Origin: Candidatus Firestoneibacteriota bacterium
GTDB lineage: Bacteria; Oederibacteriota; D2-FULL-39-29; CAIOVX01
NCBI GenBank assembly: GCA_903916325.1
Contig: CAIWWK010000156.1
Span: 1 to 54,255, forward strand
Reading direction: 5' to 3'
Length of the DNA: 54,255 nt
A program made the translations under genes and the position numbers. The notes beneath the pieces were generated by a model. The model was not told where the DNA came from and searched no databases. It was given only the letters and a program-made list of their open reading frames with translations. Of this stretch, positions 7,904 through 49,249 are shown piece by piece. The number at the start of each line of letters is the position of its first letter. The first letter of the stretch is position 1.

Positions 7904-8685
7904 AAAACATCGAACAGGCGCTTAAGTTCAGCAATAAGGGAGAAAGATTGTTTGGCGTTCTGCATCTGCCAAAGAAATCCGGCAAGTTCCCGTGCGTGGT
8001 CATGTTTCACGGTTTTACAGGGCACAAAGCGGAAGATCATTTTCTTTTCACCAAAACTGCGCGAAAGCTTGCCGAGAAAGGCATTGCCGCGTTTCGTTTT
8101 GATTTCCGCGGTTCCGGAGATTCTGAGGGGACTTTTGAACGTATGACTATCGGCACGGAGATAAGCGACGCGAAAGAGGCTGTTAGATTCATAAAAAAAC
8201 ACAGGAGCATTAAGAAAGAAAGCATAGGGGTCCTGGGATTGTCTATGGGAGGTTTTGTCGCGGCCTATATCTGCGGCAATGTCGCCGGCGTAAGAGCAGC
8301 AGTTCTGTGGAGCGCGGTAGGGCAGTATAAAAAAGTATTCGGCAAAAACCTAAAAGTAAACTTCAAAGCAAATAATCTGAAAGCGAAGGATGTCGGCGGT
8401 GTTGTGCTGGGGAAAGGGTTCTTCAAGGCAGGCATCTGGTATGACGGACTGAACCTGGTTTCTGTAAATGAATACAAAGAACCGCTGCTTATCGTTCACA
8501 GCGATAACGACAAGGCAGTCCCATTTTCCGACGCGCAGCTTTACTACAGGACCTCTGGTTCAGGGATAAAGGAATTGAAGAAAATAAACGGCGGCGGGCA
8601 TACTTACGGAGAAAACGGAATGGAACCGAAGGTTATCGATTACTCCGTTAAATGGCTTAAGAAGCATCTAAGTTCACGCGGGTGA
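7900..8685 (+). CDS. Alpha/beta hydrolase (serine esterase/amidase type) embedded in the arg cluster
   Basis: 261 aa. It has HGFTGH, the nucleophile elbow GLSMGG, a candidate acid in HSDNDKAVP and a candidate His in GGGHTY. Its start shares an ATGA overlap with the argB stop. Confidence 0.7.
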   Translation: MKNIEQALKFSNKGERLFGVLHLPKKSGKFPCVVMFHGFTGHKAEDHFLFTKTARKLAEKGIAAFRFDFRGSGDSEGTFERMTIGTEISDAKEAVRFIKKHRSIKKESIGVLGLSMGGFVAAYICGNVAGVRAAVLWSAVGQYKKVFGKNLKVNFKANNLKAKDVGGVVLGKGFFKAGIWYDGLNLVSVNEYKEPLLIVHSDNDKAVPFSDAQLYYRTSGSGIKELKKINGGGHTYGENGMEPKVIDYSVKWLKKHLSSRG

Positions 8686-8696
8686 CAGGAGTTAAA

Positions 8697-9896
8697 ATGA
8701 GAAGCACAGACATTTTTCTTGACGAGCAAAAGTATATCTTTCAGACCTATGCGCGTTTCCCGGTCCTTATAACGAAGGGCAAAGGAATGCATGTTACGGA
8801 TAACGAAGGGAAAGAGTATCTGGATTTCCTTTCAGGGATAGCGGTAAACGCCCTCGGGCACTGCCATCCCGCTGTCGTAAACGCGATAAGGAACCAGACG
8901 AAAAAGCTCTCCCATACCTCAAATCTTTATTACACTATTCCACAGGTCAAGCTCGCGAAGAAATTGGCGGCGTTGTCTGGTTTGAGTAAAAGCTTCTTTT
9001 GCAACAGCGGAGCAGAAGCGAACGAGGCGGCAATAAAACTTGCAAGAAAGTATGCCAAAGAGAACCTCGGCCCGGAGAAGTTTGAGATAATAACCATGCA
9101 CGGAGCCTTCCATGGAAGGACGTTGGCGACGCTGACTGCGACCCCGCACGAGAAATTTCACAAAGGCTACGAGCCTCTGCCTGCGGGTTTCAAATATGTC
9201 AATTACAATGATATTGAAGCCCTTAAAAAAGCAATAGACGAAAAAACCTGTGCTGTGCTGGTTGAACCGGTCCAGGGTGAAGGCGGGGTTCTGGTTCCGT
9301 CGCCGGGTTATCTGAAAGAGTTGCGGCTTCTCTGCGATGAAAAGAATATACTGCTGATCCTTGATGAAGTCCAGGTAGGCATGGGACGGACCGGAAAAAT
9401 GTTCGCTTTTCAGCAGGAAGGAATACTTCCCGACATACTTACGCTGGCCAAGACAATCGGAGCAGGCTTGCCTCTCGGTGTTATGATGGCTTCGGAAAAA
9501 GTCTCAAAAGGTTTTGTTCCGGGCAGTCATGGGAGTACCTTCGGCGGCGGCTCGATTGTGTGCGAAGCAGGGCTTGCGGTACTTGAGACTATTGAGAAGA
9601 AAGGCCTTTTGGAAAATGTCTCCGATATGGGTTCTTATCTGCTCTCAGAATTGAAGAAACTAAAAGAAAAATACCCTTCAATAAAGGAAGTTCGAGGCCT
9701 CGGCCTTATCTGCGGCATAGAACTTGAAATTCCCGGCAAGGAGATTGTAAGCGAAATGCTCCGCAGAGGTTTCCTGATAAACTGCACCAGCGATAAGGTC
9801 CTTCGTTTCCTGCCTCCTTTCATCGTCGCGAAGAAGCACATAGACCGGCTGATAGCAGCGCTTGACGCGGTGTTTTCAGAAAAGCAACAGGTTTGA
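8697..9896 (+). CDS. argD: Acetylornithine aminotransferase
   Basis: A class-III aminotransferase with GHCHPAVV, LILDEVQVGMGRTGKMFA and TLAKTIGAGLP (PLP lysine context). ATG 8697 lies 5 nt after AGGAG. Track ORF 8682 starts at a GTG that overlaps the previous stop. Confidence 0.9.
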   Translation: MRSTDIFLDEQKYIFQTYARFPVLITKGKGMHVTDNEGKEYLDFLSGIAVNALGHCHPAVVNAIRNQTKKLSHTSNLYYTIPQVKLAKKLAALSGLSKSFFCNSGAEANEAAIKLARKYAKENLGPEKFEIITMHGAFHGRTLATLTATPHEKFHKGYEPLPAGFKYVNYNDIEALKKAIDEKTCAVLVEPVQGEGGVLVPSPGYLKELRLLCDEKNILLILDEVQVGMGRTGKMFAFQQEGILPDILTLAKTIGAGLPLGVMMASEKVSKGFVPGSHGSTFGGGSIVCEAGLAVLETIEKKGLLENVSDMGSYLLSELKKLKEKYPSIKEVRGLGLICGIELEIPGKEIVSEMLRRGFLINCTSDKVLRFLPPFIVAKKHIDRLIAALDAVFSEKQQV

Positions 9897-11769: not shown

Positions 11770-12964
11770 AGCGAAAAAAGTCGTCCTCGCTTATTCCGGA
11801 GGACTTGATACTTCCATCATAATACCGTGGCTTAAAGAAACTTACGGTTGTGAAGTGATAGCTTGCGCTGTTGATGTCGGCCAGGGCGAAGAGCTGGCGC
11901 CGCTCCGCAAGAAAGCCATTAAAACCGGGGCAAGCAAGATATACATTATTGACGCGAAGAAAGAATTCGTAGAAGACTTCATCTTCCCGGTGCTCAAAGC
12001 GGGCGCTGTATATGAAGGGCGGTATCTTCTCGGCACTTCCTTCGCGCGTCCGGTTATAGCTAAAAAGATTGTAGACATAGCGAGAAAAGAGAAAGCGGAC
12101 GCTGTTTGCCACGGCGCAACAGGCAAAGGCAACGACCAGGTGCGTTTTGAGCTTACTTTTAAAGCGTTAATGCCGGAGGTTAAAATTATAGCCCCCTGGC
12201 GCGAGTGGGACATAAAGTCCCGCGAGGACGCAATGGATTACGCCGCAGCGCGCGGGATTCCTGTGCCTGTGACCAAGAAAAAACCCTACAGCATGGACCG
12301 CAACCTCTGGCACATAAGCTATGAAGGGGGGATACTTGAAGACCCCTGGTTCACGCTGCCGGAAGATATGTACCTGCTGACTAAGAGCCCTGAAAAGGCT
12401 CCGAACAAGCCGGAGTTCGTTGAGATAGAATTCTTAAAAGGCGAGCCGGTAAAACTTAACGGAAAAAAATACGGACCTGTAGAATTAATACAGAAGCTCA
12501 ATGTTACAGCGGGCCGGCATGGCGTCGGGCGCATTGATATAGTTGAGAACCGTCTTGTCGGAATGAAGTCCCGCGGGGTGTATGAAACACCGGCGGGAAC
12601 AGTGCTCATGGCGGCGCACAAGGATCTTGAGCTGTTGACAATGGAGCGCGATGCGTATCATTACAAGGAAACGATAGCTCCGAAGTACGCCGAGCTTGTC
12701 TATAACGGACAGTGGTACACCGACATCCGGCAGGCGCTTGATGAGTTTGTAAACTTCACTCAACGCACCGTGACCGGAACCGTCAGAATGAAGCTTTACA
12801 AGGGTTCCTGCATGGCTGTAGGCAGAAAATCAGCGTACTCCCTGTACGACGGGAATATAGCGAATTTCAAGAAGGATTCGCACTACGACCACAAGGATGC
12901 CGAAGGTTTCATAAATCTCTTCGGGCTTCCTATCAAGATAAAGGCAATGTTAAGGAAGAAATAA
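11759..12964 (+). CDS. argG: Argininosuccinate synthase
   Basis: 401 aa. Contains AYSGGLDTS (ATP-PPase motif), [13 protein letters not shown] and [14 protein letters not shown]. Confidence 0.95.
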
Positions 12965-13217
12965 GCACCAGTAGTGCAAGCACCAAATCACAAGTCCGTC
13001 CGCGTGCGGACGAGATCGCGCCACAATATTGAATTGTGGCGGACACCAAGCACCAAATAAACACCAAGAAACAAATAATAGAAATGGAAAGTACAGGTAA
13101 TTCTAAAAGCAGTTTGTGGTTTGTGTCTTTTGTTTTTATTTGGGATTTGGTGCTTGAGCTTAAGTGATTTGGTTCTTGGGATTTGTGATTTAAGTTTTGC
13201 AGTTTCTTGTACAGGAG
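12965..13217. repeat. Imperfect-palindromic intercistronic element, copy 1
   Basis: About 95% identical over 96 nt (12980-13075) to 30604-30699. The C/A-rich left arm is mirrored by a G/T-rich right arm. Two perfect short hairpins lie in the left arm. Confidence 0.9.
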
Positions 13218-13225
13218 AAAAAAAT

Positions 13226-14506
13226 ATGAAACTTTGGGGCGGACGTTTTGAGAAAAAGCCGTCTAAGGCGGCCGAGAAGTTTACAAGCTCCATTTTCTTT
13301 GACTACCGGCTTGCCGAGTATGATGTGCTCGGCAGTATTGCTCATGTCAAAATGCTCGGGAAACAGAAAATAATATCGAAAACGGACTCCGCGAAAATTG
13401 TCAAGGCTCTCTGGAAGGTGCTCGCGTCGGTAAAGTCGGGGAAATTTGTGCCGTATACTTCCTGCGAAGATATCCACACGGATATCGAAAAACGCGTGTT
13501 AAAACTGGCAGGGGAAGCGGGTAAAAAGATGCACACTGCCCGCAGCCGCAACGACCAGATAGCGCTCGACGAGCGGATGTATATGCGCTCCGAGGTTAAC
13601 GATATAACGGCCGGCCTGGAAGAACTTATTTCCGTCTTCGCGAAACTCACGAAAGAGAATAGCGACCTGGTATTACCGGGTTTCACCCACATGCAGCACG
13701 CCCAGCCGGTGAAGTTCTCTGCCTGGGCAGGCGCCTACTCAGCCATGTTTTCGCGCGATATTGAGCGTTTCAAAGACTGTTTCAAACGCGTGAATGCAAT
13801 GCCTCTCGGGGCCTGCGCGCTGGCCGGGACCTCGCTACCGATTGATAGAAATTATGTCGCGAAGCAGCTCGGGTTTCCTGCTCCTGTCAAGAATACCATT
13901 GACGCCGTTTCAGACCGCGACCATGTAGTTGAATTTATCGCGGACTCCGCAATGGTTTTCATGCATTTAAGCCGTCTTGCCGAGGAAATGGTTATCTGGT
14001 CAACAAAAGAGTTCAAATATATCGAGATTCCGGACGAATATTCCACGGGCTCCAGCATAATGCCGCAGAAGAAAAACCCGGACATATTTGAACTGCTCCG
14101 GGGAAAGACCGGCCGGGTTTACGGCAACCTTACGGGGATACTTACCATTATGAAAGGCCTGCCGCTTGCCTATAACAGCGATATGCAGGAAGACAAGATA
14201 CATCTATTCAGCGCGGCGGACGCCGTCAAGGAAGCTCTTGAAATTTGTTCCCTGGTAATGTCAGGAATTAAGTTCAATAAAGAGAATATTAAATATGCCA
14301 TGAATAATGATTTTTCTGATGCCGTCGAGGCGGCGAATTACCTGGTAAAGAAAGGCCTTGGTTTTAAGGACGCGCATAATGTTGTCGGGAAAATTGTTCT
14401 GCATTGCATAAAAGAAGAGATTGGTTTCAAGGACCTTTCGCTTTCCGAGTTGAAGGGGTTCTCTGAAAAGATCGGACAGGATTTTTACGGCGTACTGAAT
14501 AAATAG
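13226..14506 (+). CDS. argH: Argininosuccinate lyase
   Basis: [13 protein letters not shown] is a typical ArgH N-terminus, and [11 protein letters not shown] is the fumarate-lyase signature. ATG 13226 follows AGGAG. The track ORF start at 13121 reads through the repeat element. Confidence 0.93.
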
Positions 14507-16088: not shown

Positions 16089-16097
16089 CCTCTTTCA

Positions 16098-16214
16098 CTC
16101 CCCCTTCAACATAAGGGGGAGCCGGAGGGGGATAAAACAGGAATAGCTGGAATGTTTTTCCCGGGGGGATTTCAACCCCACCCCGGCCCTCCCCTTATCA
16201 TGAAGGGGAGGGGG
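16098..16214. repeat. G/C-rich hairpin repeats (CTCCCCCT..AGGGGGAG and CCCTCCCC-TTATCATGAA-GGGGAGGG)
   Basis: There are perfect 8-bp stems at 16098-16121 and 16187-16214. The second is related to the 12-bp-stem hairpin at 49201-49235. Confidence 0.8.
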
Positions 16215-16223
16215 AGAATAGGA

Positions 16224-17090
16224 ATGCCTGAAGTCAAGAACCCCCGTGAAATAAAAAAACGAATCAAGAGTGTCGGCGACACCGAACAGCTTACCAAGGC
16301 CATGAAGATGGTTGCTTCGGTGCGTTTCAAGCGCGCATTCCAGATGGTTTCGGCTGGACGCCCCTATTCTAAGAGTATCAGGGATATGGTGGCGGATGTC
16401 GGCGGCAGCCTGGGAGATTCCTACGAGAACCCGTTTTTTGAGGCGGATAAAAAAGCAAAGAAGGAACTTTTGCTTGTAGTCGGTTCCGACAAAGGGCTTT
16501 GCGGAAGCTACAACAGCAATGTCCTGCGCGCGGCCATGAAATACCTTTCGTCCAGAGGCAGGGATAAAGTTGATGTTATAGCGGCAGGAAAGAAGATAAA
16601 GGACTATCTTTCGCGCAGAGGCTGGAATGTCGTAGATTCCTTCCTAAACCTCTATCAGGATTTCAATTACGGTTCAGCGATGCAGGTTTCAGAAAGGCTG
16701 ACCTATGCTTTTACAAGCGGTGAATATTATGAAGTAACGCTTATGTACAGCGAGTTCAAAAACGCCGCTCAGGCGGTCTTAAAAACAGAAAGGCTCTTCC
16801 CTCTGAAGCTAAAAGGCGGAAAGAAACAACCGGTGGATTATATCTACGAGCCGAAGCTGGAGCAGATAATGGAAGTGCTCCTTCCAAAATACATCAAGGT
16901 TAGTGTCTATGAAATGCTCGTCGAGGCTAACGCTTCCGAACAGGGTTTGCGCATGACCAGCATGGAGCAGGCAAACCGGAACGCGAGGGATATGATACGC
17001 GACCTTACTCTGGTTTATAACAAAGCCAGGCAGGGAAGCATCACGAGGGAGCTCGCGGACCTCGTGGGCGGAGCAGCAGCGGTTAGTTAA
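16224..17090 (+). CDS. atpG: F1 ATP synthase gamma subunit
   Basis: The sequence MPEVKNPREIKKRIKSVGDTEQLTKAMKMVA ... ITRELADLVGGAAAV is typical of gamma. The track ORF start at 16152 translates the hairpin repeat. Confidence 0.9.
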   Translation: MPEVKNPREIKKRIKSVGDTEQLTKAMKMVASVRFKRAFQMVSAGRPYSKSIRDMVADVGGSLGDSYENPFFEADKKAKKELLLVVGSDKGLCGSYNSNVLRAAMKYLSSRGRDKVDVIAAGKKIKDYLSRRGWNVVDSFLNLYQDFNYGSAMQVSERLTYAFTSGEYYEVTLMYSEFKNAAQAVLKTERLFPLKLKGGKKQPVDYIYEPKLEQIMEVLLPKYIKVSVYEMLVEANASEQGLRMTSMEQANRNARDMIRDLTLVYNKARQGSITRELADLVGGAAAVS

Positions 17091-17094
17091 GATC

Positions 17095-17200
17095 AAAAGT
17101 TTGTAAAGTTCTTAAGGTTCATAAGGTTTATAAGGTCAAGGCTTCTGTTTTGCGGGACCTTATAAACTTTACAAACCTTATAAACCTTATAAACTTTTTT
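17095..17200. repeat. Palindrome built from TTATAAGGT-like 9-mers between atpG and atpD
   Basis: The left arm GTTTGTAAAGTTCTTAAGGTTCATAAGGTTTATAAGGTC is mirrored by GACCTTATAAACTTTACAAACCTTATAAACCTTATAAAC. Confidence 0.85.
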
Positions 17201-17202
17201 GA

Positions 17203-18901
<1,699 letters not shown>

Positions 18902-18902
<1 letters not shown>

Positions 18903-20006
18903 TGGCAGATCTGAAGTACGAATACGCGGCGCTGGAAAAGAGAGTCCTGGAGTTACGGGGGCATCTTTGACATTGACGGAAAGCTTGAAGAAGTAAAAAA
19001 AATTGACGTTGAGTCCTCGGGGGACAACTTTTGGGGGGATAACGAGAAAGCCAGGAAACTGCTTAAGAAAAGAGAGCAGTACCTCCGCGATATAGACGGC
19101 TGGAAGAAGCTCCACGCCGACCAAGAAGACCTGAAAGCCGGGCTGGAACTTCTTGCCCTTGAAAATGACGAGACCTTTCTGAAAGAGCTCGAAGCAAAAG
19201 CCGCGAAACTCCTCAAAGACATTGAAGCCAGAGAGCTTTACGTTTACTTCACCGATGAATACGACGGCAACAACGCTTTCCTGTCAATACATCCGGGAGC
19301 CGGCGGGACAGAGTCGCAGGACTGGGCTTCCATGCTGCTCCGCATGTACTCCAGGTGGATAGAGCGCAGGGGCTTTAAAGTTGAGACCATTGATCTTCTG
19401 CCGGGAGAAGAAGCAGGTGTAAAAGACGCGACACTGCTGGTTTCGGGCCCAAACGCTTACGGCTACCTTAAATCGGAAAAAGGCGTTCACCGCCTTGTCC
19501 GAATCTCACCGTTTGACGCCAACAAGAGAAGGCATACCTCTTTTGCTTCCGTGGATATCTCTCCTGAGGTAGACGACGTTCAGATCGAAGTGAAGGAAGA
19601 GGATTACCGGCTTGATACCTTTAGGGCCTCCGGAGCAGGCGGCCAGCACATAAACAGGACCGATTCCGCCGTGAGAATGACACACTACGCGACGAACATT
19701 GTAGTTACTTGCCAGAGCGAAAGATCCCAGCTCAAGAATAAAATAATTGCCATGAAAGTCCTTAAGTCAAGGCTTTATGAATATTACAAAGCGCAGCAGG
19801 ATGAGAAAATGAGCAAGGTTGGCGGCGAGAAAAAAGATATTGAGTGGGGAAGCCAGATAAGATCCTATGTTCTCCAGCCGTACCAGATGGTTAAGGATGT
19901 CCGTACCGGCTATGAAACAAGCAATACGCAGGGAATGATGGACGGCGAGATCGACGGTTTTATTGAGGCGTATCTAAAAATGAAGGCTGGGGCAAAGAAA
20001 AGTTAA
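18902..20006 (+). CDS. prfB: Peptide chain release factor 2, requires programmed +1 frameshift at CTT TGA C (18965-18971)
   Basis: Frame 0 runs from ATG 18902 to TGA 18968-18970 and is preceded by the SD-like GGGGG. The +1 frame from 18969 is open and joins track ORF 19332..20006 in the same frame. That ORF carries SPFD..KRRHTSFA and the SGAGGQHINRTDSAVR motif. Confidence 0.92.
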
Positions 20007-20135
20007 AAAGTTTGTAAGGTCCGTAAGGTTTATAAGCCGCACTTCGTGCGTCTTGTTTTGTAAGGAAAGATATTATGCATGCCAGACTCCGTCCGGCATA
20101 GCAGAATAAGGTTCATAAAGTTTGTAAGGTACACT
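20007..20135. repeat. GTTTGTAAGGT / TTATAAGG motif cluster with internal hairpins
   Basis: GTTTGTAAGGT occurs at 20010-20020 and 20120-20130. CGCAC-TTC-GTGCG and ATGCC..GGCAT hairpins lie between them. It belongs to the same motif family as 17095-17200 and 24004-24028. Confidence 0.7.
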
Positions 20136-23913: not shown

Positions 23914-24003
23914 TCTGAGGGGCAAGTAGCAACGAATTATTTCGCATGCATCCTTCGTAAATCCCGTAACCACATACGCCTTCCCGGTCTCATTTGTTTT
24001 ACG

Positions 24004-24028
24004 TTATAAACCTTATGAACTTTATCCT
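24004..24028. repeat. AACCTTATAA-type motif fragment (complement orientation)
   Basis: TTATAAACCTTATGAACTTTATCC is related to the right arm of the 17095-17200 palindrome. Confidence 0.5.
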
Positions 24029-29267: not shown

Positions 29268-29296
29268 TTGAAAACCTGTGTTATACATGTTATTAT
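29268..29296 (+). promoter_or_regulatory. Possible promoter immediately upstream of xseA
   Basis: TTGAAA, 17-nt spacer, TATTAT. It would leave ATG 29305 nearly leaderless. Confidence 0.3.
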
Positions 29297-29304
29297 TAAA
29301 TGTT

Positions 29305-30603
29305 ATGACAGAAACCGATAAAGCTCTTACCGTTACTGAATTAACCAGAGGAATCAAAAATGTCCTCTCGGACGAATTTGACGATATTAGAGTTGAAGGC
29401 GAGCTCTCTAATTTTCTTATTCATTCGTCAGGCCACCTGTATGCTTCCTTGAAGGACGAGAATTCCGTAATCAAGCTCGTGATGTTCAAGGGCGCGAACC
29501 TGAAGCTCAAGTTCAAACCGGCGAGCGGAATGAATGTCATTGTTCACGGCCGAGTTGACGTCTATGAAAAGAGCGGCCAGTACCAGGTAATTGCCGATTA
29601 TATGGAAGAGGCAGAGGGCCGGGGCAGCCTGCAGAAGAAGTTTGAAGATCTCCGGGACAAACTTGTCAAGGAAGGGCTGATTGTCAGGAAAAGCGATGGT
29701 ACTCACCACAGGTTGAACCCGCGGCCAATTCCCGGCTTTCCGGAAAAAATAGGTATAGTGACCTCGCCAACCGGGGCTGCAATACAAGACATACTAAATA
29801 TAATAGACCGCAGGTTTTCAAATGTAACGGTAGTCCTGGATCCGGTAAAGGTTCAGGGCGACGGCGCGGCCGAAGATATTGCGGCAGCCGTGGCGCGGTT
29901 GAATTCTCTCGGCGGATTTGATGTCATCATAGTGGGAAGGGGCGGGGGTTCCATAGAGGACCTCTGGGCTTTCAATGAGGAAGTTGTAGCGAGAGCGATT
30001 TGCGCTTCGGAAGCGCCGGTTATTTCGGCGGTAGGGCATGAGATAGATTTCACCATCGCTGATTTTGTGGCGGACCTTCGGGCTCCGACGCCATCGGCCG
30101 CCGCGGAACTTGTGGTCAAGGACAAGAACGATATCGCGTCTGTGCTTGAGGGAAATTGGGCCAGGCTGAATCAGGCGCTTTCGGCGCTGACGCAAAGGCA
30201 CGGGGAAAGGCTTGCGTGGCTCGGAAAAACCGGGCTGGCATCGGCCCTCAGGCAAACAGTCGAGGTTTTCAAGGAAAGGATCAACAGTTTGCGGAAGAAC
30301 CGGGTGCTTTCAAAACCCTCGGAATTGATAGACGAACTCAGGCAGGAGCTTGACGACCTGGAGCAGAGGGGAGAAAAGGCCTACAGGCATTTTAGGGAAC
30401 TTAAGAGCCGCGAGCTGATACTTGCCAAAAGCATGCTTGAAGGGCTGAATCCGCTTAAGATACTGGAAAGGGGTTATAGCGTCACGCTGAGTAAGTCGAG
30501 CGGGGCAATAATTAGGGATTCCAAAGACCTGAAAAAGGGCGATAAGGTGGAGCTTAGATTCGCCAAGGGCTCCGCCGGCGCTGAAATAACAGAAACTAAA
30601 TAA
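29305..30603 (+). CDS. xseA: Exodeoxyribonuclease VII large subunit
   Basis: It has an OB-fold N-terminus (LTVTELTRGIKNVL...VEGELSNF) and the catalytic-region motifs GIVTSPTGAAIQD, RGGGSIEDLWAFN and SAVGHEIDFTI. The track start at 29278 is the alternative. Confidence 0.9.
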   Translation: MTETDKALTVTELTRGIKNVLSDEFDDIRVEGELSNFLIHSSGHLYASLKDENSVIKLVMFKGANLKLKFKPASGMNVIVHGRVDVYEKSGQYQVIADYMEEAEGRGSLQKKFEDLRDKLVKEGLIVRKSDGTHHRLNPRPIPGFPEKIGIVTSPTGAAIQDILNIIDRRFSNVTVVLDPVKVQGDGAAEDIAAAVARLNSLGGFDVIIVGRGGGSIEDLWAFNEEVVARAICASEAPVISAVGHEIDFTIADFVADLRAPTPSAAAELVVKDKNDIASVLEGNWARLNQALSALTQRHGERLAWLGKTGLASALRQTVEVFKERINSLRKNRVLSKPSELIDELRQELDDLEQRGEKAYRHFRELKSRELILAKSMLEGLNPLKILERGYSVTLSKSSGAIIRDSKDLKKGDKVELRFAKGSAGAEITETK

Positions 30604-30838
30604 GCACCAAATCACAAGTCCGTCCGCAAGCGGACGAGATCGCGCCACAATATTAAATTGTGGCGGACACCAAGCGCCAAATAAGCACCAAGAAACAAAA
30701 AATCAAAAGTCCAAATACGGGCAATTATAAAGGCAGTTTGTAGTTTGTGTTTTTGTGTCTTTATTTGGGATTTGGTGCTTGAGATTTGAGATTTGAACTT
30801 AAGTGATTTGAATTATTGTCATTTAGTCTTACAGGAGG
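30604..30838. repeat. Imperfect-palindromic intercistronic element, copy 2
   Basis: It has the same orientation and architecture as 12965-13217. It fills the xseA-xseB spacer from the TAA stop to the AGGAGG SD. Confidence 0.9.
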
Positions 30839-30842
30839 CTGT

Positions 30843-31082
30843 ATGCCGGAAGAAATTAAGTTTGAAGACGCTTTGAAGAAACTTGAAAAGATTGTGGAGA
30901 CGCTGGAGAGCGGAGATGTCGGCCTGGATGATTCTCTCAAGAAATATGAAGAAGGCGTCAGGCTGCTCCGTTTGTGCACAATCAAGCTGGAAGAGGCGGA
31001 GAAGAAGATTGAGGTGCTGACGAAAGACAAGAACGGCAAGGCAACGGGAACCAAGGAATTCAACAAACCGGAAGGAAAATAA
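30843..31082 (+). CDS. xseB: Exodeoxyribonuclease VII small subunit
   Basis: MPEEIKFEDALKKLEKIVETLESGDVGLDDSLKKYEEGVRL is typical of XseB. ATG 30843 follows AGGAGG. Confidence 0.9.
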   Translation: MPEEIKFEDALKKLEKIVETLESGDVGLDDSLKKYEEGVRLLRLCTIKLEEAEKKIEVLTKDKNGKATGTKEFNKPEGK

Positions 31083-38988: not shown

Positions 38989-39019
38989 TTACGCGGATGC
39001 GCAGTAAAGGCGGAGGACG

Positions 39020-39055
<36 letters not shown>

Positions 39056-39081
39056 TGGACCGATAGACCCCATGAGTACTT

Positions 39082-39113
39082 AATTAGCAATTAGCAATCA
39101 GTAATTAGTAATC
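39082..39113. repeat. Degenerate tandem heptamer AATTAGC/AATCAGT/AATTAGT x4.5
   Basis: AATTAGC AATTAGC AATCAGT AATTAGT AATC, read directly from the sequence. Confidence 0.85.
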
Positions 39114-39180
39114 CGCGGAGCGGCAGACCGATGCACAACAGCTTTAATAAATTTGCTTAATCTTATGGAGTGAATTGACA

Positions 39181-49200: not shown

Positions 49201-49235
49201 TTGCCCCCTCCCCTTATGATGAATGGGAGGGGGCA
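49201..49235. repeat. Perfect 12-bp-stem hairpin TTGCCCCCTCCC-CTTATGATGAAT-GGGAGGGGGCAA
   Basis: The reverse complement of the left arm equals the right arm exactly. It shares a core with 16187-16214. Confidence 0.85.
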
Positions 49236-49249
49236 ATTAGGTAAAACAA

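Follow-up and report, generated by a model that had tools for sequence, protein, structure and literature searches.

The spacer between xseA and xseB in contig CAIWWK010000156.1 of Candidatus Firestoneibacteriota bacterium (assembly GCA_903916325.1; the whole stretch of 54,255 nucleotides [nt] is referred to as the window) is probably one insertion of a small, noncoding, modular palindromic repeat that resembles miniature inverted-repeat transposable elements (MITEs) and ERIC sequences and is confined to a single clade of Candidatus Firestonebacteria. Two copies of this repeat, each approximately 230 nt long, were found in the window: copy 1 between argG and argH (positions 12978 to 13208) and copy 2 between xseA and xseB (positions 30602 to 30830). 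Among relatives, presence or absence of the element was polymorphic at xseA/xseB, argG/argH, hydrolase/argD, gap/pgk, and atpG/atpD. These filled, partial, and empty orthologous junctions point to a fast-turnover interspersed insertional repeat rather than to a conserved operon-internal regulator. Comparison of the junctions indicates that the unit lands between the stop codon of one gene and the Shine-Dalgarno (SD) sequence of the next in tightly packed operons and that internal deletions between its short direct repeats cause its decay.

Two copies of one repeat in the window

Positions 12978 to 13130 and 30602 to 30754 were detected by the repeat finder as a direct repeat with 88% identity, and the complete argG-argH and xseA-xseB spacers were approximately 82% identical over approximately 240 nt (BLAST E value, 1e-55). 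Copy 2 was identical across independent assemblies from several samples. An origin of the repeat in chance similarity or in an assembly artifact has next to no probability and was rejected on the basis of this level of identity, the independent assemblies, and the related copies found in further assemblies. Pfam searches confirmed the flanking genes as argF-argG and argH-guaA around copy 1 and as xseA and xseB-ispA-dxs around copy 2 (the xseA open reading frame [ORF], positions 29278 to 30603, matched Exonuc_VII_L), and the genes flanking both copies are co-oriented operon genes. The elements ranged from 215 to 280 nt in length, with no ORF or Pfam-bearing product inside.

Over positions 1 to 96, copies 1 and 2 differed at exactly five sites, three of them in the loops of the two small hairpins (Table 1), and both counts agreed with the original prediction. 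Unpaired positions made up 31 of the 96, and the probability of at least four of the five changes falling at unpaired sites was 0.04. The internal recurrence of a string resembling the stop codon context, which had also been predicted, was recovered as well, with AAATAAGCACCA (one mismatch allowed) occurring at positions 12959, 13055, 30598, and 30679 compared with an expectation of 0.32 occurrences. The string TACAGGAG occurred in the window at positions 13210 and 30830 only.

Filled, partial, and empty junctions in relatives

Syntenic loci of relatives, which are named Candidatus Firestonebacteria, were collected through their XseA, ArgH, and PGK proteins and supplied approximately 390 kb in addition to the 54-kb window; relatives with filled, truncated, or empty junctions shared 84 to 93% protein identity. 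A 19-mer from the hairpin linker was also scanned against 185,579 species genomes, with five matches. One of these was true, a Firestonebacteria metagenome-assembled genome (MAG; L004) with a full element in sense orientation between gap and pgk, the sequence of which was identical in two other assemblies. The remaining four were rejected as coding-sequence coincidences in unrelated phyla.

The xseA/xseB gap measured 239 nt in the window species (many samples) and 65 nt in a relative with 84% XseA identity (L012), which was without the core. Gaps of 13 nt in an 87% relative (contig of P0002, ENA ERZ1426851; XseA of 438 amino acids) and of 218 nt in a 78% relative (P0004, ERZ1426815) are known as gap lengths only. 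At argG/argH, the gap was 261 nt long in the window; 178 nt long in L028 (92% ArgH identity), where precisely two parts were missing, the 56-nt module with its two hairpins and the outer 3' arm; 113 nt long in L018 (93%), where the GU-rich arm was gone too, through a deletion between two TTGTAGTTT repeats; and 91 nt long in L016 (87%), where there was no element. The central loop of the L018 argG/argH element matched copy 2 and not its own orthologues, which shows that copies exchange sequence.

The hydrolase/argD junction of the window (positions 8683 to 8700) was empty (TGA-CAGGAGTTAAA-ATG). The same junction was filled in L018 (6265 to 6417), L016 (6284 to 6441), and L028 (2403 to 2551) by a sibling AC-arm/GU-arm element of approximately 135 nt, inserted between the stop codon and CCAGGAG and forming a clean empty/filled pair with the window. 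The gap/pgk junction was filled in L004, L029, and L030 and empty in L031/L032; the copy at this junction began approximately 45 nt past the stop codon, behind a native GC hairpin, and in a relative with 82% PGK identity the junction consisted of nothing but the native GC hairpin, the SD sequence, and a TGCTATAAT box, without an element. At atpG/atpD, a copy without the module was located directly after the stop codon (AGTTAA/AAGCACCAAATAAAC) in L016 (87%) and L028 (92%), and the same slot was occupied in the window and L018 by an unrelated palindrome of TAAGGTT-type units.

The alignment of orthologous junctions that the original prediction had called for thus yielded empty, partial, and filled sites. 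Mobility as such, which one of the two explanations offered there combined with a supply of translation signals, is upheld by the gain or loss of the element at orthologous junctions among close relatives, and the other, an operon-internal regulator, is disfavored, as this turnover lacks the signature of a conserved regulator.

The atpG/atpD palindrome of the window (positions 17091 to 17214) belongs to a second palindrome family built from 9-nt TAAGGTT/TAACGTT-type units. Its 43-nt arms were 84% complementary, and its fold z-score was -10.6. Related TAAGGTT-type units were observed at positions 20000 to 20036 and 23998 to 24024 of the window and at positions 16936 to 17157 of L012.

More distant Firestonebacteria (63% ArgH identity) had long argG/argH gaps that contained a terminator and a conserved promoter and no element, and these gaps were rejected as carriers. 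The promoter-like box, AAAAAGTGAAAA-N13-15-GTGATATAAT, was located upstream of argH in L021 (9830 to 9875), L024 (9875 to 9915), and L027 (9885 to 9920). The succession of a terminator and this box suggests that argH is separately transcribed in these organisms.

A scan of metagenome contigs with a 20-mer of the 5' arm returned three contigs (L006, 76 to 95; L007, 385 to 404; and L008, 180 to 199), which were without the hairpin module and are distant relatives at best (nhmmer E values of 4e-4 to 3e-3). These contigs differed greatly in G+C content and had in common a 25-mer, AAGCACCAAATCACAAGTCCCAAAT, within AC-arm/GT-arm intergenic hairpins in the 5' regions of genes; they could represent a much wider family or a convergent motif grammar. 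Scans of viral contigs returned coding coincidences only, with no phage link, and a literature search for the motif strings returned nothing relevant.

Anatomy and predicted fold of the element

Members of the family followed one plan (Table 1). An AC-rich 5' arm with CACCAA(A/G)-type motifs comes first and, where present, the optional 56-nt module second; the long inner hairpin and the GU-rich 3' arm follow, and the last part is a U-rich tail with TCTT at its end. The sense strands of both copies were predicted to fold into a four-way junction of the outer stem, the two GC-rich hairpins, and the long inner hairpin, the 5' arm of which contained the motifs CACCAAG and CACCAAA (fold z-scores of -4.1 for copy 1 and -5.9 for copy 2). 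The U-rich tail extended 20 to 30 nt past this structure, directly before the SD sequence. The 5' outer arm was identical in copy 1, copy 2, and L004, and in L004 the 3' outer arm was its perfect partner. The resulting 14-nt inverted repeat (AAGCACCAAATCAC/GTGATTTGGTGCTT) was perfect in L004 and degenerate in copies 1 and 2. It is subterminal at the 3' end, with a nonpalindromic tail of 20 to 45 nt outside it, and the true ends share AAG…CTT only.

Table 1. Positions in the window of the two copies, their parts, their flanks, and the differences between them over positions 1 to 96
Feature	Position(s)	Strand	Remarks
xseA stop codon TAA	30601..30603	+	Native; its last two A's are the AA of the first element motif, AAGCACCAAAT
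Copy 2, 5' outer arm AAGCACCAAATCACAAG	30602..30618	+	Pairs with 30798-30810 (RNA folds)
Copy 2, two-hairpin module, 56 nt	30619..30674	+	CAAG at either side
Copy 2, hairpin 1	30621-30636	+	CGTCCG-CAAG-CGGACG
Copy 2, hairpin 2	30643-30665	+	CGCCACAAT-ATTAA-ATTGTGGCG
Copy 2, inner long hairpin	30672..30780	+	AC-rich arm (AAGCGCCAAATAAGCACCAAGAAACAAA) paired with GU-rich arm (…TTTATTTGGGATTTGGTGCTT)
Copy 2, 3' outer arm CTTAAGTGATTTG	30798..30810	+	Degenerate partner of 5' arm
Copy 2, U-rich unpaired 3' tail AATTATTGTCATTTAGTCTT	30811..30830	+	3' end of the element, …TCTT
xseB SD sequence ACAGGAGG, spacer, ATG (30843)	30831..30845	+	Probably native to xseB
argG post-stop mini-hairpin GCACCAGTAGTGC	12965..12977	+	Native flank; conserved in L018 and L028
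Copy 1, argG/argH	12978..13208	+	5' arm, 12978-12994; module, 12995-13050; inner hairpin, 13048-13155
Copy 1, 3' part		+	3' arm, 13159-13177; tail, 13178-13208
argH SD region GTACAGGAG, A-rich spacer, ATG (13226)	13209..13228	+	
Difference, copy 1/copy 2	13004/30628 and 13005/30629		Hairpin 1 loop, CGTG versus CAAG
Difference, copy 1/copy 2	13031/30655		Hairpin 2 loop, ATTGA versus ATTAA
Difference, copy 1/copy 2	13052/30676		Stem, A to G; A-U becomes G-U, pair kept
Difference, copy 1/copy 2	13061/30685		Internal loop

No Rfam family matched at the gathering threshold anywhere in the window, and a permissive Rfam search of positions 30560 to 30880 returned chance-level microRNA and long noncoding RNA matches only (E values of 0.5 to 8). 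No tRNA or transfer-messenger RNA was found in the window. Neither copy contained a predicted promoter or terminator on the sense strand; terminator-like matches inside the element were on the minus strand only, at hairpin 1. Roles as an intrinsic terminator, attenuator, or promoter were rejected on the basis of this lack of a predicted plus-strand signal in either copy.

Variation in the hairpins and strand bias of the fold

The third full copy, in L004, differed from copy 1 at 7 of 9 loop positions of the small hairpins and at 0 of 69 stem, linker, and 5' arm positions (Fisher's exact test, P = 1e-8). The identity of these two copies over the rest of the element was approximately 60%, and the carrier arms were approximately 60 to 72% identical. 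Across the three copies, the stems and linkers of the hairpin module were invariant and the loops variable. The two-hairpin core is thus under a constraint that spares the loops. The original prediction, which attributed the loop changes in the two window copies to selection on structure, would have been undermined had more copies shown substitutions spread evenly; the third copy instead concentrates its changes in the loops. The contrast between loops and stems was accordingly much strengthened. Invariant stems provide no compensatory pairs, so the constraint may be on sequence, through recognition by a protein, as much as on structure.

The sense RNA was predicted to fold more stably than the antisense RNA in five of five copies, by 5.7 to 9 kcal/mol, and the sense fold was richer in G-U pairs in four of the five. 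An 11-bp basal helix was kept in the fold of the five-copy alignment, and all three one-sided changes within it gave G-U pairs. Together, the sense-fold advantage and the restriction of changes to G-U pairs hint that the transcribed strand is constrained at the level of RNA.

The module was absent from the orthologous argG/argH copy of L028 and from the atpG/atpD copies. It followed ATCACAAG in three of three carriers, which may not be independent events. This presence independent of the carrier, with CAAG at both boundaries, suggests that the module may be a nested unit of its own.

Ownership of the stop codon and the SD sequence

In the original prediction, the stop codon context, the structured core, and the ribosome-binding site (RBS) were regarded as one traveling cassette. 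The U-rich tail does belong with the core, the stop codon does not belong to the unit, and the evidence on the SD sequence leans against its inclusion. Both copies had been described as starting immediately after a TAA stop codon at GCACCA. Because the GCACCAGTAGTGC mini-hairpin between the argG stop codon and copy 1 is part of the flank, this junction is literally present in both copies and homologous in copy 2 only. The start of copy 1 by homology is 13 nt past the argG stop codon, and the mini-hairpin was kept in relatives, including a recognizable version in element-free L016 (TAGCACTGC...GTGC). In L012, without the core, XseA ended at the same codon (…AEITETK-stop) and with TAA; XseA length was unchanged in the relative with the 13-nt xseA/xseB gap, as was ArgG length among close relatives. 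With the C termini of XseA and ArgG not remodeled, and with copy 1 and the gap/pgk copy set back from their stop codons by 13 and approximately 45 nt, respectively, the stop codons are native.

Local alignment of the 40 nt immediately preceding the start codons gave scores of 14 for copy 1 with copy 2 and 14 for copy 2 with L004, compared to a 99th percentile of 11 to 12 among 66 other upstream regions, and four of four loci compared ended in TCTT. To judge from these similarities, the U-rich tail belongs to the element.

ACAGGAG was found upstream of 3 of 44 window genes, all three at element-associated junctions. The shorter CAGGAG was found at 3 of 5 element sites versus 1 of 41 other window genes (P = 0.0025) and, among 62 gene starts of relatives, at element-associated junctions only. 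The (A)CAGGAG sites were located upstream of positions 8698, 13226, and 30843 (also 9909) in the window and at L012 11383, L016 6439, and L018 6415 and 10001 in relatives. Within the argH lineage, ACAGGAG was present with the element in the window, L018, and L028, whereas element-free L016 had GAGGAG. Candidate causes of the association of ACAGGAG with element sites are carriage by the element, a target preference, and a filter for strong SD sequences.

At gap/pgk and atpG/atpD, the TCTT tails were followed by other SD sequences (AGGGGG and TGGAGG), and the SD context of L004 (ATTAGGGGGT) resembled the empty-site SD sequence of L031 (ATTAGTCGGAGGT). The empty hydrolase/argD site of the window already carried CAGGAG, and the SD sequence was unchanged with and without the element in two clean pairs, hydrolase/argD (window versus L018) and gap/pgk (L031 versus L004). 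In L012, without the core, both GTCTTACAGGAGGCT upstream of xseB and the xseB SD string GTCTTACAGGAGGCTTTATG were present. This occurrence counts against carriage and is of the kind that the original prediction had named as refuting it. However, the L012 spacer is not pristine, as its 65 nt form a small AC/GU hairpin followed by a tail that ends in TCTT, and L012 was dropped as a clean empty site that would refute carriage. A bare SD spacer would account for the 13-nt xseA/xseB gap of the 87% relative. On balance, these comparisons lean toward a native SD sequence, with either a preference of the element for such targets or a filter for strong SD sequences. The proposal that the shared 3' ends serve as the downstream SD sequence therefore holds for the homology of the tails up to TCTT and is doubtful for an SD sequence that travels with the element.

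Proposed explanation and alternatives

As an inserted repeat, the element would be cotranscribed in the operon mRNA, where its sense strand is predicted to form the four-way junction. It would survive only where it exerts no polar effect, a condition on both the site and the orientation: in the sense strand the GC-rich hairpins precede AC-rich sequence and so would form no terminator, whereas in the antisense strand U-rich runs would come after them. The U-rich tail would hold the structure away from the native SD sequence. By analogy with ERIC and Correia repeats, an effect on the host would most likely be incidental and concern the processing or stability of the mRNA and the uncoupling of cistrons. 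The invariant stems and linkers of the module may point to recognition by a protein, which would be a mobilizing enzyme or an RNase or RNA-binding protein.

Several observations weigh against this explanation. No target-site duplication was seen in the flanks of four loci, which were compared by eye, and the true terminal inverted repeats are weak (AAG…CTT). No transposase was found among the window genes by Pfam searches of 20 ORFs, which covered the 54-kb window only and identified housekeeping genes, an AAA_14/DUF4143 ATPase, and a PIN protein. Approximately five independent loci are known, and an nhmmer search over 441 kb of related loci detected no further full copies. Orientation was sense in four of four cases, a small number for an element that is nearly palindromic. 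Computed SD accessibilities with the element native, deleted, and inverted (0.51, 0.50, and 0.44 for copy 1 and 0.44, 0.64, and 0.57 for copy 2, respectively) showed no consistent direction. The sense-biased G-U excess, from a small number of copies, could in part reflect strand-biased mutation, and a host-selected function would account for the extreme conservation of the module no less well than recognition for mobility would.

Such a function is the basis of an alternative in which the four-way junction is an intercistronic RNA recruited by the host and selected as an RNase III or RNase E processing site or as a stabilizer that sets the XseA:XseB, AtpG:AtpD, GapA:Pgk, and ArgG:ArgH ratios. 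All copies are sense oriented inside conserved operons, the sense-fold advantage and the G-U-only changes fit a selected RNA, and so do module stems and linkers that are invariant beside hypervariable loops; the downstream product is, judging from established stoichiometries, needed in excess in two of the four operons (XseB and AtpD). We consider this alternative unlikely, given that relatives with 84 to 93% protein identity do without the element at the same junctions, that the element is half-deleted in L018 and L028 or swapped for an unrelated palindrome at atpG/atpD, and that the argG/argH junction of distant Firestonebacteria has a terminator and a promoter instead. The lack of a matching Rfam family also counts against it, as does that of compensatory double changes in the small hairpins, which makes constraints on sequence and on structure inseparable. 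A composite origin is similarly doubtful. In that case the module would be a separate, younger, site-specific mobile unit (IS200/IS605 or REP type) that entered older AC/GU palindromes after ...ATCACAAG, consistent with its presence in copy 1 and absence from the orthologous L028 copy with a clean junction (GCAAG/CACC), the CAAG on both of its edges, its identical position in all three carriers, its approximately 100% conservation outside the loops versus approximately 60 to 72% in the carrier arms, and its GC-rich sequence in an AT-rich carrier. However, the three carriers may share one composite ancestor, the L028 loss is explicable by a slip between CAAG/CACCAA repeats, and a young module should have identical loops, yet 7 of 9 loop positions differ. 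The 19-nt module probe, moreover, hit one place only in 185,579 species genomes, and no TnpA or RAYT was seen in the window.

The SD sequence bears on a further alternative, a portable intercistronic cassette in which the element brings a U-rich standby tail and an SD sequence (…TCTT-ACAGGAG) and splits coupled genes without silencing the downstream one. In its favor are tails that are homologous between independent copies right up to the SD sequence, the concentration of ACAGGAG and CAGGAG at element-associated junctions described above, and the co-occurrence of ACAGGAG with the element in the argH lineage. Its probability is nonetheless low, as the tails at gap/pgk and atpG/atpD precede other SD sequences, the SD context of L004 is like that of the empty site in L031, the empty hydrolase/argD site already has CAGGAG, L012 has GTCTTACAGGAGGCT without the core, and the stop codons and C termini are native. 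An extended form of this cassette, a self-sufficient "operon splitter" that would combine a mobile palindrome, its own tail, and an ACAGGAG RBS with a new protein-recognized or catalytic two-hairpin RNA module acting on the operon transcript, is quite improbable. The inserted, decaying repeat remains the explanation that we favor.

Significance

The element represents a dynamic intercistronic palindromic repeat family in a candidate phylum without cultured members, and it fills the slot between stop codon and SD sequence in arg, xse, atp, and gap-pgk operons. The series of full, half-deleted, and empty sites constitutes a natural experiment on the tolerance of operon junctions to insertions. 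Should a function be borne out for the hairpin module, or for the tail together with the SD sequence, cistrons could be uncoupled with a compact RNA part that is portable. A caution for annotation is that the intra-operon gaps of 200 to 300 nt in these MAGs are repeats and not missed genes or promoters.

Other features of the window

The prfB gene (release factor 2; positions 18903 to 20006) was apparently split by a classical programmed +1 frameshift, with the site at approximately 18965 to 18971 (CTTTGAC after GGGGG) in a 429-nt "gap" before an ORF of 224 amino acids with PCRF and RF-1 matches. In L016, prfB was called as a single gene of 353 amino acids. A C/G-run hairpin (CCCTCCCCTTATxATGAAxGGGGAGGGGG) was present at positions 16187 to 16222, just inside the start of atpG (ORF, 16152 to 17090), and at positions 49204 to 49241, with 86% identity, and possibly represents another small repeat family; a similar, differently placed C/G-run hairpin filled the guaA/atpG gap (16089 to 16151). 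The intergenic region from 38989 to 39174 contained a tandem 7-nt repeat (GAAGACA, five units) followed by TTAGCAAT/TTAGTAAT-type repeats, and two genes each had a copy of a 38-nt direct repeat near the 5' end (39220 and 41628).

Comparison with known small repeats

The arrangement of the element was originally thought to be unusual for REP-like repeats. This view was overstated, as cotranscribed intercistronic regions are known locations of ERIC and Correia/NEMIS repeats (PMC2229807). ERIC RNA is cotranscribed and alters the stability of flanking cistrons via RNase E in an orientation-dependent manner, and the Correia/NEMIS RNA hairpin, which is cotranscribed with its neighbors, is a proposed RNase III target (PMC2229807). 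ERIC/IRU sequences of the Enterobacteriaceae and Yersinia resemble the element in being imperfect noncoding palindromes of 100 to 250 nt that are dispersed, in intercistronic gaps among other places, that vary in presence at orthologous sites, and for which orientation matters. This likeness is functional and positional only; the Rfam searches gave no sign of homology to a family such as the 127-bp ERIC consensus, and the host phylum differs. Unlike ERIC/IRU, the element is modular, with 7-nt motifs in an AC-arm/GU-arm layout, and contains two GC-rich hairpins as an embedded pair; its U-rich tail, which is not palindromic, abuts the SD sequence. Correia/NEMIS, a MITE of Neisseria, is likewise a small palindromic insertion with length variants that arise via internal deletion, but its 26-nt terminal inverted repeats, TA target duplication, integration host factor sites, and promoter parts were not found in the element.

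Hairpin elements of the REP/REPIN-RAYT type and those derived from IS200/IS605 have short GC-rich hairpins with conserved stems and free loops, make no target duplication, and may be lost precisely. IS200/IS605-type elements have subterminal hairpins without terminal inverted repeats and insert 3' of a fixed 4- to 5-mer. In contrast to REP/REPIN sequences, in which one palindrome of 20 to 40 nt is present twice in inverted orientation, the hairpins of the element are two unrelated structures (CGTCCG/CGGACG in hairpin 1 and CGCCACAAT/ATTGTGGCG in hairpin 2) arranged in tandem rather than inverted, have no GTAG head, and lie within an AT-rich palindrome far larger than themselves, and the window contained no RAYT or TnpA gene. 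BOX, RUP, and SPRITE repeats of Streptococcus pneumoniae are, like the element, intergenic, hairpin forming, and often transcribed, with unrelated sequences. BOX, in which the numbers of the A, B, and C modules vary, is in this sense modular like the element; we know of no description of a bias of BOX, RUP, or SPRITE repeats toward the slot between stop codon and SD sequence. As in MITEs, the element is short (<~500 bp), noncoding, and polymorphic in its presence at orthologous sites, and of the MITE traits it lacks the target-site duplication. It is a new sequence family among small repeats of the ERIC/Correia/BOX type, a member by sequence of none of these, in an uncultivated phylum.

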